Counted from the stretch's first letter, positions 1-9,243 are shown. The stretch: DNA of 10,334 nt from a virus (IMGVR_UViG_2681813261_000016); one strand, 5' to 3'. Notes: generated by a model from the sequence alone, not told the origin. Translations and numbers: made by a program.

Positions 1-115
1 GTCCAGACAAGCCCGATTGTCACCAATCAGCAAAAGAAGTTGCGATTTCGATGTATGGGAAGTTCGTAGGCTTCCCCAATGACAAAATCAAAAAAAACCA
101 GAAAGGTAAAAACAC

Positions 116-3100
116 ATGAAGGCACTGATGGTTCGAACTGACTTCTCACTTGGGGAGTCGGCTCTAAAAGCAGAAAACGCGGTGAAGATTGCCAGAGAAG
201 CTGGCTACACCGCTGTAATTTCAGCAGATAGCATGAATATTGCGAGCGTTATTCCACTACAACGTGCCGCTGGTGACGACATGGCGGTTATTTGTGGTGT
301 GAAACTAAACATTGTTGATGATCCCACATACGAGCACCGGGCTAAACTTGCTAAAGAATCTATGAGATGTATGGAATCATTAGAGCGGGGACGTAACTAC
401 TCGTTTACCGCTCTAATTAAAAATGAGCAAGGATATCGCGACATCTGCGAACTAATGACGGTGGCCAACACACGAGAACAGTTCTACTTTGTACCGCGTC
501 TCTCGCTCGAACAGTTGGTTTCTACATATGCCAAAGGCAACATCATCCTGCTCACTTCCGACATCGGTAGCGTGTTCCAACGCAACGATTTTGCAAAAAT
601 CATAAGCACACTGATTACAGCGGGTGGAAAAGACAACTTCTATAGTGTGGTTTATCCGCACCCTACCCCATTCTACGACCAGATTAACGTCCGGGCGATG
701 AAAGTCGCCAGCGCATTGAAAATAGAGCCAGTGGCGTTCTATCCCGCTTATTACGAATCGATCGACGATGCAGACATTAAAGACATTGCGCACATGGTTA
801 CGAACAACATCAAAATCGACCAGCCGCATCGTCTGCGTATCCCCCACCAGCGAGATAACGCCGTCAATGGTCGCCGCCATCTCCTTGAGGCGCTTAAAGC
901 CTTCTCCGTTCGCATGGATGTGCCGGTAACAGCTGCAATGGCCTCAACAACGCAGGATACCATTATCGATGCCTGCACATGGCGCTGGCATGAATTGCCG
1001 CCAGCACTGCCAAAGATGGCAGACGACGAGCCTGCAACGCTTATGAAACTGGCTGTTGCAGGGCTGCGTAAACGTCTTACCACAAAAGAGTTTGGCTACA
1101 CACCACCTGCTTCTGAGAACAGGGTTTATGTTGAGCGGCTAAAGTACGAAATGGACACGCTGACTCGCCTGGGATTTTGTGGTTACTTCCTGATGGTACG
1201 CGATCTGATGAATCACAGCCGTGAAACTGGCATTCCTGTCGGGCCTGGTCGTGGTTCCTCCGCTGGATCTCTGGTGGCATGGTGCATAGGCATAACCAAC
1301 GTCGACCCAATCCGTCACGGTCTTCTGTTTGAACGTTTCATCAACCCTGAGCGTCTCGACTTGCCGGATGCGGATTTGGACTTCAGCCAGGCACGTCGCC
1401 ATGAAGTGATCGAGTATCTGAATGAACGCTACGGCGAAGATTACGTTGCGGGTATTCCGAACTTCACATATCTGGGCGCAGCCTCTGCACTACGTGACAC
1501 CGCTCGTATTTATGGTGTGGAGTCCGCAGATATGGCGGTATCAAAAGAACTGAAGAACGTCGAGGATGATAGCCTTCCATTGGAAGAACTGCGCGAACAA
1601 CTGGCAAGTCTCGACAAATACGCAACAAAATATCCTGATGCATTCAATGCAGCCTGCAAGTTACAAAGCCTTATGCGTGGCTTTGGTAGACATGCGGCAG
1701 GGATGATCGTAGCAGGTGTTCCTCTGACAGAACGTACACCGGTTGAACGACGTGGTGACGCGCGTTGTATCGCATTTGACAAGCGTTACTGCGAGGCTAT
1801 GGGCCTAATTAAGCTGGACGTGCTTGGCCTGGCAACTCTCGATTTGCTCGATAGTGCAAAACGCTACATAAAAGAGAACACAGGTGAAGATATCAATCTT
1901 GATGCCATTTCTCTTGAAGATCGCAAGGTGCTGGATGGTTTTGCTGCTGGGTACACTCAAGGTGTTTTCCAGCTTGAATCAGGCCCAATGCGCAAGCTGC
2001 TTAAAGATTTAGGTGGTGGAATTGAGCCAATGAGCTTTAAAACGGTTGTTGCTACGACTGCGCTCTTCCGGCCGGGACCAATTCAGTCAGGCATGTTGGA
2101 TGATTATGTTTCTGTCGCCAAAGGCTTTATGACGCCGGAATCATTACACCCCGTTCTTGATGAACTTACCGCAGAAACAAATGGCGTGATTCTCTATCAG
2201 GAACAGACGATGAACGCGACTCGATTGCTTGCTGGCTTCACAATGGCTGAAGCTGACGGCGTTCGTAAAGCGATAGGCAAAAAAGACATGGAAAAAATGA
2301 AGAGCATGGGCGAGAAGTTCATCGTTCAGGCTCAAGCTGGCTGGATAGACGTTGAGCTGGAAGATGGCACTACACAGCGCATTCACCGTGCGGAACATTT
2401 TAAATGCGAAGACGGAACTCTGAAAACTGTCGAAGAGGCACTTGAGCACGGAGCAACACTACCTATAAACGCAGTACGCGTTACAGCGTCACATCCAGGG
2501 CTATCAGAGATGAAAGCGAAGGAGATCTGGACCGCATTCGAAAAAAATGGTGCCTACCAGTTCAACAAATCACACAGTGTTGCTTATTCTTTAATCAGCT
2601 ATCAGTCCATGTGGTTAAAGACACATTACCCTGCTGAGTTCTTCGCTGCTGCGCTCACCATTCTGGGCGAGGATAAGCACCAGGGGCTGGTTAAGGATGC
2701 GCTGACCTATGGCATTCGCGTATTGCCACCAGACGTTAACGTGTCATCTAACCGAATCGAGATCCGCACGCTTGAAGATGGCAGCCAGGTGCTGTATGCG
2801 CCCTTCTCTGCTGTGAAGGGGTGTTCTGAGAATGGCTGCCAGGCCATCATGAGAGCGCGAGAAAAAGTTGGCGGCAAATTCGAGTCACTGGCGCAATTCG
2901 AAGAAGCTGTCGAGAAACGTGCCTGTAATAGTCGAGTGCGCGAATCGCTGCAAAAAGTAGGGGCGTTTGCATCCATCGAGCCAGGTAGTCTGCCAGCAAC
3001 TGATCCAGAGCGCCTACGCGACCAGGCTGAATTGATGGGAAACCTTGTCATAGACGCAGTTAAAGCCTCACGTCCGTTTGAGATGAACCCCAAACGATCG

Positions 3101-3634
3101 GCTGAAATTAACGCACTCATGACACGGATGGCGGCTGAAATGGGCTTAGGTGATGAACTAATCCGCCCCAGCATTGGTATTAAGCCGAAAATCATGATCA
3201 TTCTGGACAATGCAAACGGCAATGATGCTCGAACCGGTTACTTCATGGAGAACGGATACGACGATTTTAAGGCCAAGCTGTTGACGGCTGGAGATTTGCG
3301 CATGGGCGATCTCTATGTCACAGGCGTTTGCAAAAAGGTGAAAGACAAAGAAAAGGACTACACCAAAGACGAGATCGGCCAGTTCACCGACTTTATGCGT
3401 GAAGAGATCAATCTGGTACGTCCGACCTATGTGCTGACGTGTGGCAGTCGGGCAACGGCATTGTTTAACAACAAAAACAAGCCATCCGATTTAGTCGGTA
3501 GGAAGGAGTATCTTCCAGACCTTGACGTTACAGTCTTTTACGGGTTTAACCCCAACATTCTTTACTTCAGACCTGAAGAGGGAGAACGACTAGAAGCGAT
3601 ATTAGCCGACGTAGCAGAAACTATTAAGTCGTGA
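116..3634 (+). CDS. dnaE: DNA polymerase III alpha-subunit-like replicative polymerase (DnaE/PolC-type C-family) with a C-terminal UDG-fold domain
   Basis: 1172-aa ORF. Hallmark C-family motifs seen in the translation: GFCGYFLMVRDLMNHSRETGIPVGPGRGSSAGSLVAWCIGITNVDP, catalytic acidic cluster LDLPDADLDF, FRPGPIQSGM, ILYQEQTM, and fingers motif YQFNKSHSVAYSLISYQSMWLKTHYPAEFFAA. The last ~150 aa resemble a family-4 UDG fold. RBS GAAAGG at 101-106, ATG at 116, TGA at 3632-3634. Confidence 0.9.
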   Translation: MKALMVRTDFSLGESALKAENAVKIAREAGYTAVISADSMNIASVIPLQRAAGDDMAVICGVKLNIVDDPTYEHRAKLAKESMRCMESLERGRNYSFTALIKNEQGYRDICELMTVANTREQFYFVPRLSLEQLVSTYAKGNIILLTSDIGSVFQRNDFAKIISTLITAGGKDNFYSVVYPHPTPFYDQINVRAMKVASALKIEPVAFYPAYYESIDDADIKDIAHMVTNNIKIDQPHRLRIPHQRDNAVNGRRHLLEALKAFSVRMDVPVTAAMASTTQDTIIDACTWRWHELPPALPKMADDEPATLMKLAVAGLRKRLTTKEFGYTPPASENRVYVERLKYEMDTLTRLGFCGYFLMVRDLMNHSRETGIPVGPGRGSSAGSLVAWCIGITNVDPIRHGLLFERFINPERLDLPDADLDFSQARRHEVIEYLNERYGEDYVAGIPNFTYLGAASALRDTARIYGVESADMAVSKELKNVEDDSLPLEELREQLASLDKYATKYPDAFNAACKLQSLMRGFGRHAAGMIVAGVPLTERTPVERRGDARCIAFDKRYCEAMGLIKLDVLGLATLDLLDSAKRYIKENTGEDINLDAISLEDRKVLDGFAAGYTQGVFQLESGPMRKLLKDLGGGIEPMSFKTVVATTALFRPGPIQSGMLDDYVSVAKGFMTPESLHPVLDELTAETNGVILYQEQTMNATRLLAGFTMAEADGVRKAIGKKDMEKMKSMGEKFIVQAQAGWIDVELEDGTTQRIHRAEHFKCEDGTLKTVEEALEHGATLPINAVRVTASHPGLSEMKAKEIWTAFEKNGAYQFNKSHSVAYSLISYQSMWLKTHYPAEFFAAALTILGEDKHQGLVKDALTYGIRVLPPDVNVSSNRIEIRTLEDGSQVLYAPFSAVKGCSENGCQAIMRAREKVGGKFESLAQFEEAVEKRACNSRVRESLQKVGAFASIEPGSLPATDPERLRDQAELMGNLVIDAVKASRPFEMNPKRSAEINALMTRMAAEMGLGDELIRPSIGIKPKIMIILDNANGNDARTGYFMENGYDDFKAKLLTAGDLRMGDLYVTGVCKKVKDKEKDYTKDEIGQFTDFMREEINLVRPTYVLTCGSRATALFNNKNKPSDLVGRKEYLPDLDVTVFYGFNPNILYFRPEEGERLEAILADVAETIKS

Positions 3635-3641
3635 TCCAATA

Positions 3642-3670
3642 AACATGGCCTCTATGGCCATGTTTTCTCT
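3642..3670 (+). terminator. Rho-independent terminator downstream of the polymerase gene
   Basis: Perfect 9-bp stem AACATGGCC (3642-3650) / GGCCATGTT (3656-3664), loop TCTAT, followed by a T-rich tail TTCTCTT; begins 8 nt after the stop codon. Confidence 0.6.
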
Positions 3671-3690
3671 TATCCCCTCATATCCCCTAT
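3671..3690 (+). repeat. Tandem direct repeat, two 10-bp units TATCCCCTCA / TATCCCCTAT
   Basis: Read directly: tatcccctca tatcccctat at 3671-3690, immediately 3' of the terminator and 5' of the promoter-like elements. Confidence 0.5.
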
Positions 3691-3701
3691 CCTCGAACTC
3701 C

Positions 3702-8950: not shown

Positions 8951-8954
8951 ACAC

Positions 8955-8981
8955 AAGGCGTCCACAGGACGCCTTTTTTAT
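8955..8981 (+). terminator. Rho-independent terminator downstream of recA
   Basis: Perfect stem AAGGCGTCC (8955-8963) / GGACGCCTT (8967-8975), loop ACA, then TTTT at 8976-8979; begins 5 nt after the stop codon. Confidence 0.75.
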
Positions 8982-8984
8982 CTC

Positions 8985-9013
8985 TTGAAAATATATAAGT
9001 ACTTACTTATTAT
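8985..9013 (+). promoter_or_regulatory. Candidate sigma70-type promoter (TTGAAA - 17 nt - TATTAT) overlapping a GTAC-centred palindrome
   Basis: -35 TTGAAA (8985-8990), 17-nt spacer, -10 TATTAT (9008-9013). The spacer contains ATAAGTA (8995-9001) and the perfect 10-bp palindrome TAAGTACTTA. Sits 30 nt upstream of the ATG at 9043. Confidence 0.5.
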
Positions 9014-9042
9014 TTTCGCATAACAACCACATAGGAAAACAC

Positions 9043-9243
9043 ATGATCAAAATCTATCTATTGGCAGTAGCCACAGGCCTTTCAGTGGCTCTCATCTACG
9101 GTTTACTGGTTCCGTCGCTGATTTCTACCAAGAGTGATTTAGCCGTCATGTTTGGAGTTATCGTTGGTTTTGGTGCTCCTGTAATCGGTCTTATTGCTGG
9201 TCGTAAGTTTATCAACTCATTAATCAAAGCAAAGGAGAAATAA
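9043..9243 (+). CDS. Small membrane protein (66 aa, two predicted transmembrane helices, basic C-terminus)
   Basis: Hydrophobic stretches IYLLAVATGLSVALIYGLLVPSLI and LAVMFGVIVGFGAPVIGLIAG separated by a short polar turn; C-terminus KFINSLIKAKEK. RBS AGGAAA (9033-9038) and conserved AAACACATG start context. Confidence 0.6.
   Translation: MIKIYLLAVATGLSVALIYGLLVPSLISTKSDLAVMFGVIVGFGAPVIGLIAGRKFINSLIKAKEK

Follow-up and report, generated by a model that had tools for sequence, protein, structure and literature searches.

Efficient translation-initiation regions (TIRs) with A-rich spacers are familiar from lacZ (AGGAAACAGCUAUG) and T7 gene 10 (AAGGAGAUAUACAUAUG), and plasmid prophages are known for dispersed operators such as the multiple C1 operators of P1. 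Signatures that distinguish a whole class of genes within their TIRs are already known from phage T4. There, the repressor RegA binds unstructured A-tract sites at the AUG of about 30 early mRNAs, while the RegB/S1 system relies on a nuclease that cuts GGAG followed by an A-rich tract (PMC3014915). In E. coli reporters, A-rich spacers raise translation, and the corresponding spacer rule can be put as 'A good, C unfavorable' (PMC7264876). The present analysis is concerned with a short motif, AAACAC directly before ATG, in a 10,334-nucleotide stretch of viral DNA (IMGVR_UViG_2681813261_000016, hereafter the window). The window shares 97-98% identity with Escherichia phage PhiR41_1, phage Cyrano and ~200 E. 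coli plasmids (~110 kb); identity is 82% for Salmonella phage SSU5 and about 80% for phage-plasmids of Klebsiella. By these identities, the window represents the replication module of an E. coli phage-plasmid of the SSU5 type.

The phage-plasmid sites resemble T4 RegA operators in being short and unstructured, in their 5' A tract and in their location at the AUG of many early mRNAs, notably those of replication genes (PMC3014915). Yet, T4 sites such as those of rIIB (AAAAUUAUG) and gene 44 (AAAUUAUG) are A+U-rich and poorly conserved, whereas the phage-plasmid sites (AAAACACAUG in the family of the window) are A+C-only and nearly invariant. Moreover, no RegA homologue was detected in the protein-family search described below, and T4 is virulent while the phage-plasmid is temperate. 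Sites of the RegB/S1 type (GG*AGRAYARAA) likewise combine a Shine-Dalgarno sequence with a purine-rich tract that embeds a pyrimidine and are located in the intergenic TIRs of early genes, and A-rich bases on the 3' side of GGA play a part in both cases. They differ from the present sites (GGA(A/G)A(A)ACAC versus GGAGRAYARAA) in register and bases: the latter mostly begin with GGAA and read GGAAA(A/G)CAC, GGAG is found at ssb alone, and the pyrimidine is out of register. A counterpart of the P1-type dispersed operators exists in the form of two palindrome families at promoters scattered over the SSU5-type genome; these are DNA palindromes, however, distinct from and independent of the start-codon motif. 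Finally, efficient TIRs of E. coli and its phages also place AAGGA or AAGGAG 5-9 nt before the AUG, with oligo-A at -6..-4 and little secondary structure. Unlike these, the phage-plasmids reuse one exact spacer at 12-22 genes per genome, conserve it across genera and confine it to a single gene class, and this spacer contains two invariant C's that are unfavorable in reporter data (PMC7264876). A literature search retrieved no description of the motif in bacteria or phages, nor of any SSU5-type regulatory site. Given the precedent of T4, the novelty lies in the different sequence, the temperate phage-plasmid family and the lack of a homologous factor.

AAACAC at the start codons of SSU5-type genes

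Within the window, the 9-mer AAACACATG occurs at 110-118, 4303-4311 and 9037-9045, in each case on the + strand and ending on a start codon, as the original prediction had stated together with the presence of a variant, AAAGCACATG, at a fourth start (one copy, 3753-3762). Its view that three exact copies lie far above chance is likewise confirmed, since dinucleotide shuffles predict 0.14 copies and 0/200 shuffles reach three. The four ATGs (116, 3760, 4309 and 9043) are the most upstream possible starts of open reading frames (ORFs) of 1172, 143, 342 and 66 aa, respectively, and agree with the annotated starts in PhiR41_1 and p1_20409; overall, motif ATGs match the annotation in PhiR41_1, p1_20409, SSU5, pJN2-26 and pRHB30-C05_4. 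An annotation artefact is ruled out, as the window ORFs have no possible start further upstream and five independent annotations agree on the ATGs, and a chance origin is ruled out by the shuffles in combination with the genome-wide counts given below.

Plasmid p1_20409 (109,253 bp, 98.4% identical to the window, 124 PGAP coding sequences) served as the genome-wide reference, with orthologous starts mapped in SSU5 and the Klebsiella phage pJN2-26. Three deep relatives, L211, L212 and L213, are contigs reached via SSB homologues of 40-54% identity. The complete Klebsiella plasmid pRHB30-C05_4 (k2; 110.7 kb, from PLSDB) belongs to the L212 lineage and stands in for its late regions; a capsid-protein search aimed at the late regions of L212 and L213 gave no link to those contigs.

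AAACAC stands directly before ATG in about a tenth to a fifth of SSU5-type genes, mostly DNA-replication genes. The genome-wide search that had been suggested as a check indeed reveals enrichment at start codons. Both strands of p1_20409 together contain ten copies of AAACACATG, of which 9/10 are located at starts, namely at eight PGAP starts and at an ATG that precedes the annotated ATT start of the primase gene by 60 nt in the same frame. For AA[AG]CACATG, this applies to 12/13 copies (11 + 1). In pRHB30-C05_4, real starts hold 12/13 copies of AAACACATG and 7/9 copies of AAGCACATG, and RRCACATG is found at 21 starts, while 10/11 copies of A[AG]CACATG in pJN2-26 lie at starts or at a primase leader ORF. 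The start-codon copies are always in sense orientation. Carriers in p1_20409 are dnaE, ssb, dnaB, the primase gene, nrdB, genes for a Mre11-like phosphoesterase and a TerB-like protein, orf143, the 66-aa gene and three hypothetical genes; the start of the CobS-like ATPase gene carries AAACGCATG.

This preference concerns the exact order of bases. CAC is the commonest triplet at -3..-1 in p1_20409 (15/124 starts; runner-up 7), as is the hexamer AAACAC at -6..-1 (9/124 starts; runner-up 3). Of the start-codon hexamers composed solely of A and C, AAACAC accounts for 9/11 in p1_20409 and 12/18 in pRHB30-C05_4. When the 15 permutations of A4C2 followed by ATG are compared in these two genomes, AAACAC scores 10 and 13 and any other at most 4, while AAACAC as a free hexamer is not over-represented. 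Mere A/C-rich composition as the source of the motif is excluded by the hexamer shares, the permutation counts and the ordinary free-hexamer frequency. In the IMG/VR collection, at least 120 stretches match the pattern AAGGAAAAACACATG, about the number that chance predicts for that collection.

At the primase gene (p1_20409 70962-71022 (-); SSU5 35837-35908; pJN2-26 77226-77294; k2 77182-77230), AAACACATG precedes the annotated start by 48-60 nt in two genomes, in the same frame; in two others, SSU5 and pJN2-26, the motif opens a leader ORF of 22-23 codons that closes on the primase ATG. The primase start looks mis-annotated. The lone AAACACATG away from a gene start (p1_20409 68485 (-); SSU5 39590 (+)) opens a mini-ORF of 9-12 codons inside the end of the preceding gene. 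It stops at or beside the ligase start codon and is kept in SSU5, not in pJN2-26.

Orthologous genes across the Escherichia, Salmonella and Klebsiella elements keep the hexamer, while the adjoining bases diverge. Upon comparison of p1_20409 with SSU5 or pJN2-26, the 12 motif genes show 76-100% identity at -1..-6 (mean.87) versus.53-.63 for 60 other free-standing genes, and just.35-.76 at -7..-16; nrdB provides an example of a kept hexamer (gaaaaaggaaaaacacATG versus cattcagagggaaacacATG). The Shine-Dalgarno type and distance change (GGAAAAACAC, GAGGGAAACAC, GAGGTAAACAC, GGATAACAAACAC), with shifts of several nt between GG and ATG, whereas the position of CAC relative to ATG is constant. Therefore, the hexamer is anchored to the ATG and not to the Shine-Dalgarno bases.

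A locus-level comparison covered 80 IMG/VR relatives (81 loci counted at orf143 and ssb). dnaE retains AAGGTAAAA(A/G)CACATG in ten sequence variants from these relatives, with A/G at -4 as the sole variation, and also in SSU5, pJN2-26, pRHB30-C05_4, L212 and L213. ssb carries AAACACATG at 37 loci and AAATACATG or AAATATATG at 44 loci, the hexamer being AAACAC in E. coli types, whereas most of the others have AAATAC; distant ssb homologues (40-44% amino-acid identity) have AAAGGAAAACACATG. At the 66-aa gene, all 20 upstream variants share GGAAA(A)CACATG, although the bases before it differ widely. In the recA spacer, which served as a control, 4/5 positions vary among the IMG/VR relatives. The orf143 motif is confined to the E. 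coli-type lineage, even though the upstream extended -10 element of this gene persists in 43 variants. As a whole, the conservation pattern fits purifying selection. orf143 and its upstream bases (window 3635-4191; L005-L084) are hypervariable, with 43 upstream variants among 81 loci in which TGnTAnAAT and an ATAAGT box are kept, and this locus, which separates dnaE from ssb, has a mosaic or diversifying appearance.

L212 and L213, from lineages whose SSB is only 40-44% identical, carry AAAGGAAA(A/G)CACATG at 7 and 9 starts in 21 kb, including those of recA, SPFH and each half of a dnaE that is split in two, i.e. genes that are motif-less or differently organized in the lineage of the window. 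This use at non-orthologous genes in distant lineages argues strongly for selection on the exact sequence. The split dnaE consists of two ORFs (about 790 + 386 aa; L212 4277-7885, L213 4880-8463, k2 55212-58815), each with an AA(A/G)CACATG start of its own, and the PLSDB gene table does not list the second half. In pRHB30-C05_4, the A/C-only stretch extends upstream of the Shine-Dalgarno sequence, too (ACAACAAAGGAAARCACATG). In L211 (SSB identity 54%), the motif is absent from almost all of the available sequence, 20 kb of one contig, with ggaaagcactATG at the ssb start and gggaaagctaaATG at the dnaE start. Such an absence throughout L211 would be expected if a shared reader was lost. Searches for a complete L211-type genome gave no match in PLSDB or the phage collection, and the distant-mode search returned ordinary family members only.

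Alternatively, the motif may have no function of its own, being inherited from duplicated promoter-ribosome-binding-site cassettes, maintained as linker homology for module shuffling or produced by local mutational bias. Phage genomes are mosaics, and the mosaic-looking orf143 with conserved non-coding bases on its flanks could be understood in this manner. Such an origin is nevertheless very improbable, given that the carriers include the unrelated core genes dnaE, dnaB, primase, ssb and nrdB, that the hexamer is better conserved than its flanks, that distant lineages have it at different genes and that it is not over-represented away from ATG.

Transcription units and gene class

The original prediction regarded the motif as a shared leader or initiation element that is specific to promoter-proximal genes and marks the first gene of each transcription unit. 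In p1_20409, the annotated gap before the motif gene indeed measures 43 nt or more in 12/12 cases, the motif is present at 12/72 free-standing versus 0/52 coupled starts (P =.00125), and three of the four window sites are situated behind a terminator and a promoter-like sequence. The expectation that operon-internal starts lack the motif also holds for 5398 (GTG), 6342, 6611 and 9247; position 9720, by contrast, is no gene start. Compared with PhiR41_1, the SPFH/band-7 gene (831 nt) has suffered a 1-nt deletion at 9693/9694 that leaves the pieces 9247-9702 and 9720-10076, and the split gene is a pseudogene or the result of a sequencing error.

A marker of first genes is very improbable, however. 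Of 72 free-standing starts in p1_20409, 60 are without the motif, many of them behind clear promoter or operator motifs, while pRHB30-C05_4 has four motif genes with upstream gaps of -4, 13, 16 and 16 nt (nrdB, recA, a RuvC-like gene and orf74077). The window sites are alike only to ~16 nt upstream of the ATG, beyond which leader lengths and sequences differ; the predicted -10 elements at 3722-3727, 4222-4227 and 9008-9013 precede the ATG by 32, 81 and 29 nt, respectively. Moreover, dnaE (116), which had been taken as the first gene of a unit, is overlapped at its motif start by a conserved small ORF that ends there (ACATGA at 114-119). What is annotated as a 180-nt 'gap' before dnaE is coding sequence for a small Cys-rich protein whose amino-acid sequence is conserved across seven lineages, and the stop codon of the small ORF overlaps the dnaE ATG (ATGA) in the window, k2, L211, L212 and L213. 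This upstream ORF shows dnaE to be a predicted operon-internal gene.

The small ORF (60-67 aa; p1_20409 about 57331-57534 (-)) lies unannotated between the CobS-like ATPase gene and dnaE. Its product is characterized by C-x13/14-C-x2-C-x5-C spacing and a basic tail, and its homologues are called as proteins in public data, with one UniRef entry naming a '4Fe-4S Wbl-type domain' protein. A Pfam search assigned no WhiB family to this small Cys4 protein, and its AlphaFold model (pLDDT 51) is too poor for a fold search. In the window, a run of 8 A at 90-97 replaces the 7 bases present in PhiR41_1, p1_20409 and SSU5, and the extra A causes the small ORF to stop on the dnaE ATG, as in the distant lineages, instead of entering dnaE by 26 nt. 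The longer run may be a real slippage polymorphism or a homopolymer sequencing error.

Two palindrome families are associated with promoters. AAACAAnTTGTTT, typically located just downstream of the -10 element, has 20 copies in p1_20409 versus 0.16 expected, and TAAGTA-n-TACTTA, typically in promoter spacers (window 8995-9010), has 17 versus 0.23 expected; all copies of both are intergenic. Their copy numbers are similar in SSU5, pJN2-26 and pRHB30-C05_4, and they look like the operator sets of two putative regulators. Palindrome-related places in the window are 8995-9010, 4196-4227 and 3706-3744.

Gene class (early, replication, recombination, nucleotide metabolism) is a better correlate of the motif than promoter proximity. 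It is found at 12/97 early versus 0/27 late genes in p1_20409 (P =.067) and at 21/96 early versus 0/22 late genes in pRHB30-C05_4 (P =.012), two tests that are not independent, as the genomes are related.

Ribosome loading and candidate readers

The original prediction had assigned a GGA-containing ribosome-binding site (RBS) to each window site, which is correct except for the first, where AAGGT is found. More generally, AAGGA, AAGGAG, AAGGT or GAGA constitutes the Shine-Dalgarno box at motif sites. The end of the last GG/GAG is separated from the ATG by 7-9 nt at 11/12 sites in p1_20409 and by 6-8 nt at 19/21 sites in k2, the exceptions being one site per genome without GG/GAG and one k2 site at 4 nt. 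The predicted mean unpaired probability at -15..+3 amounts to.65 for motif genes versus.47-.49 for others (P = 2e-4 in each of two genomes), and the A+C content at -20..-1 to.80 versus.50. Hence, the sites exhibit all features of a Shine-Dalgarno-type initiation region: a purine box at the proper distance, a real start and predicted accessibility.

The best explanation, for which the balance stands about level, is that the motif, read at the mRNA level, gives early and replication genes a ribosome-loading site that is free of structure and specific to this class. Its function is placed on the mRNA at initiation because the motif is sense-only, anchored to the AUG and also located inside coding DNA and in 13-16-nt gaps. 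According to this model, SSU5-type phage-plasmids would use a module anchored to the start codon and composed of an A/C-rich leader, AAGGA, A(A/G), CAC and AUG for their replisome, recombination, nucleotide-metabolism and other early genes. A moderate Shine-Dalgarno sequence (AAGGA, 5 bp with 16S rRNA) at 7±1 nt from the AUG would be set within an almost pure A + C stretch that is unable to fold. The 30S subunit could then load directly on numerous unrelated mRNAs, at comparable rates and probably aided by protein S1, be it behind a promoter, in a 13-16-nt intercistronic gap, within an upstream ORF or on the primase-coupled leader ORF. The proposed pad thus consists of a moderate Shine-Dalgarno sequence, the oligo-A tract at -6..-4 and a G/U-free context. 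The AAACAC bases would be read by the ribosome itself, and the pay-off would presumably be a uniform, structure-independent initiation of early genes. The beneficial effect of A-rich spacers in E. coli reporters (PMC7264876) agrees with this model.

Several points weigh against ribosome loading as the whole explanation. The invariant C at -3 and -1 departs from the known spacer optimum (PMC7264876), and no late gene has the motif, including the major capsid gene, which is expected to need the highest output. In the host, a sampled 50-kb stretch of E. coli K-12 that includes ribosomal-protein operons contains no AAACACATG, and 0/10 CACATG are at gene starts, albeit in a small sample. L211 is motif-less at all sites in the 20 kb available. 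The invariant C's, the early-only use, the absence from the host genes sampled and the absence from L211 are more easily reconciled with a dedicated reader than with the ribosome alone.

It is hence possible, if doubtful, that the motif is an operator, i.e. the binding or cleavage site of a trans-acting post-transcriptional regulator that is encoded by the phage-plasmid or recruited from the host. Such a regulator could switch the early/replication class on or off together, either in the plasmid state or in late lytic growth. Besides the class specificity without any late gene, this would be consistent with the AUG-anchored, ~9-15-nt, unstructured site with a 5' A tract as described for RegA operators (PMC3014915), with the presence of the motif at replisome genes as in the RegA regulon, with the selection of an exact base order though the ribosome disfavors C, with the lack of the motif at host genes (50 kb sampled) and with its absence from all sites in L211, while deeper lineages retain or expand its use. 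However, the early/late contrast reaches only P =.067 and.012 in related genomes, and the argument from L211 refers to 20 kb of one contig. Moreover, no factor emerged: a Pfam search (E <= 0.01) with the 56 hypothetical proteins of p1_20409 yielded no RegA, CsrA, Hfq, cold-shock, KH or S1 family and no candidate for a RegB-like nuclease, and PHROGs assigned these proteins to families of unknown function only. The sites share the features of RegA-type operators (AUG-abutting, unstructured, 5' A tract, many early mRNAs) without a RegA-family protein, and a non-homologous factor is possible.

An RNA as the reader was considered as well. Rfam found only tRNAs in the whole of p1_20409, by which a known RNA family is rejected, and there is no conserved antisense element complementary to the motif in four genomes. 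In these, [CT][AG]TGTGTTT and GTGTTT retrieved only the antisense strand of the sites themselves and non-conserved chance copies; a host small RNA was not searched for. Two antisense candidates, an 11-bp match at p1_20409 9666 and the terminator tail of the late-operon leader, were discarded, as neither SSU5 nor k2 conserves them. Sites of the Hfq (ARN)n and CsrA types were rejected by eye due to a register mismatch. Tentatively, AAACAC-AUG may be put forward as a putative operator that ties translation of replisome, recombination and nucleotide-metabolism genes to the plasmid-versus-lytic decision, as an analogue of RegA/RegB without sequence relationship.

A further alternative views ACACAUG as two overlapping ACA sites for the host toxin MazF, or else as a DNA-level protein-binding or methylation site. 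MazF cleavage was reportedly found by Vesper et al. in 2011 to create leaderless mRNAs under stress, a finding disputed by later work, and the stress-ribosome model is contested. ACA is present at -4..-2 and -2..+1 in every copy, and genotoxic stress acts as an inducer of Cyrano, a close relative (PMC9928086). The sites also keep a Shine-Dalgarno sequence at the proper distance, however, and the AAGCAC and AAATAC variants retain the ACA pattern only in part. As to recognition of DNA, all copies are in sense orientation and abut the ATG, which points to RNA instead. Both possibilities are extremely improbable.

Surrounding features and significance for SSU5-type elements

Table 1. Coordinates of genes and sequence elements in the window.
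Feature	Position	Strand	Remarks
Small unannotated ORF, 3' part	3..119	+	Frame 3, upstream of dnaE
dnaE TIR	102..118	+	AAAGGTAAAAACACATG; within 3' end of small upstream ORF; exact AAACACATG
dnaE (Pol III alpha)	116-3634	+	1172-aa ORF
Terminator-like hairpin after dnaE	3641..3665	+	
Extended -10 promoter-like element upstream of orf143	3719..3727	+	TGATATAAT; by sequence; TGnTAnAAT in 43 upstream variants
orf143 TIR	3747..3762	+	AAAAGGAAAGCACATG; AAGCAC variant
orf143, hypothetical protein	3760-4191	+	143 aa
Promoter-like region upstream of ssb	4196..4227	+	Inverted repeat TGATAGAT...ATCTATCA around ATAAGTAAGTACT core
ssb (gp32-family) TIR	4297..4311	+	AAGGAGAAACACATG; exact AAACACATG
ssb, gp32-family single-stranded DNA-binding protein	4309-5337	+	342 aa
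5'-3' exonuclease gene	5398 (GTG) to 6342		
Small ORF	6342-6608		
recA-like gene	6611-8950		Interrupted by LAGLIDADG element
Terminator-like hairpin after recA-like gene	8955..8975	+	
Sigma-70-like promoter	8985..9013	+	TTGAAA-17-TATTAT; spacer palindrome ATAAGTA-CT-TACTTAT at 8995-9010
TIR of 66-aa membrane protein gene	9033..9045	+	AGGAAAACACATG; exact AAACACATG
66-aa membrane protein gene	9043-9243	+	
SPFH gene	9247-10076		Frameshifted in window

The recA-like gene encodes 779 aa in the window, where its PGAP label is LAGLIDADG homing endonuclease, versus 358 aa in SSU5 and pJN2-26, and this difference in length points to insertion of an intein or homing endonuclease within the E. coli lineage. 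Behind ssb, a strong terminator-like hairpin with a T-run (5353-5382) lies 15 nt before the GTG of the exonuclease gene; no promoter-like sequence separates hairpin and start codon, and the layout is kept in relatives. Elsewhere in p1_20409, 1.5 kb without a convincing ORF (8401-9965) are G+T-rich on the + strand (T.34, G.27) and ~68% conserved in SSU5. This plasmid also has host-type metG and apbC as well as the trimethoprim-resistance gene dfrA51 aboard (11206-14497 and 29508-29984).

SSU5-type phage-plasmids include pHCM2-like and pMT1-like elements, Cyrano and many plasmids of Klebsiella, Escherichia and Salmonella. Clinical enterobacteria commonly contain them, and resistance genes such as dfrA51 are among their cargo. 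For these elements, the motif delimits a class of 12-22 genes in each genome, amends gene starts or casts doubt on them (primase, split dnaE, leader ORFs) and allows signals at the level of translation to be separated from the two promoter-associated palindrome families. It is a concrete cis-element that bears on how ~100 kb of lytic genes are silenced and then expressed in order. If the motif is purely ribosomal, it would reveal a sequence-specific spacer preference (C at -3 and -1) not foreseen by present E. coli rules, and it would provide a ready-made, context-independent RBS for engineering. If it is an operator, its absence from L211 would mark the loss of the regulator, and the phage-plasmids would furnish a second example of RegA-type control, independent of that in T4 and in a temperate element.

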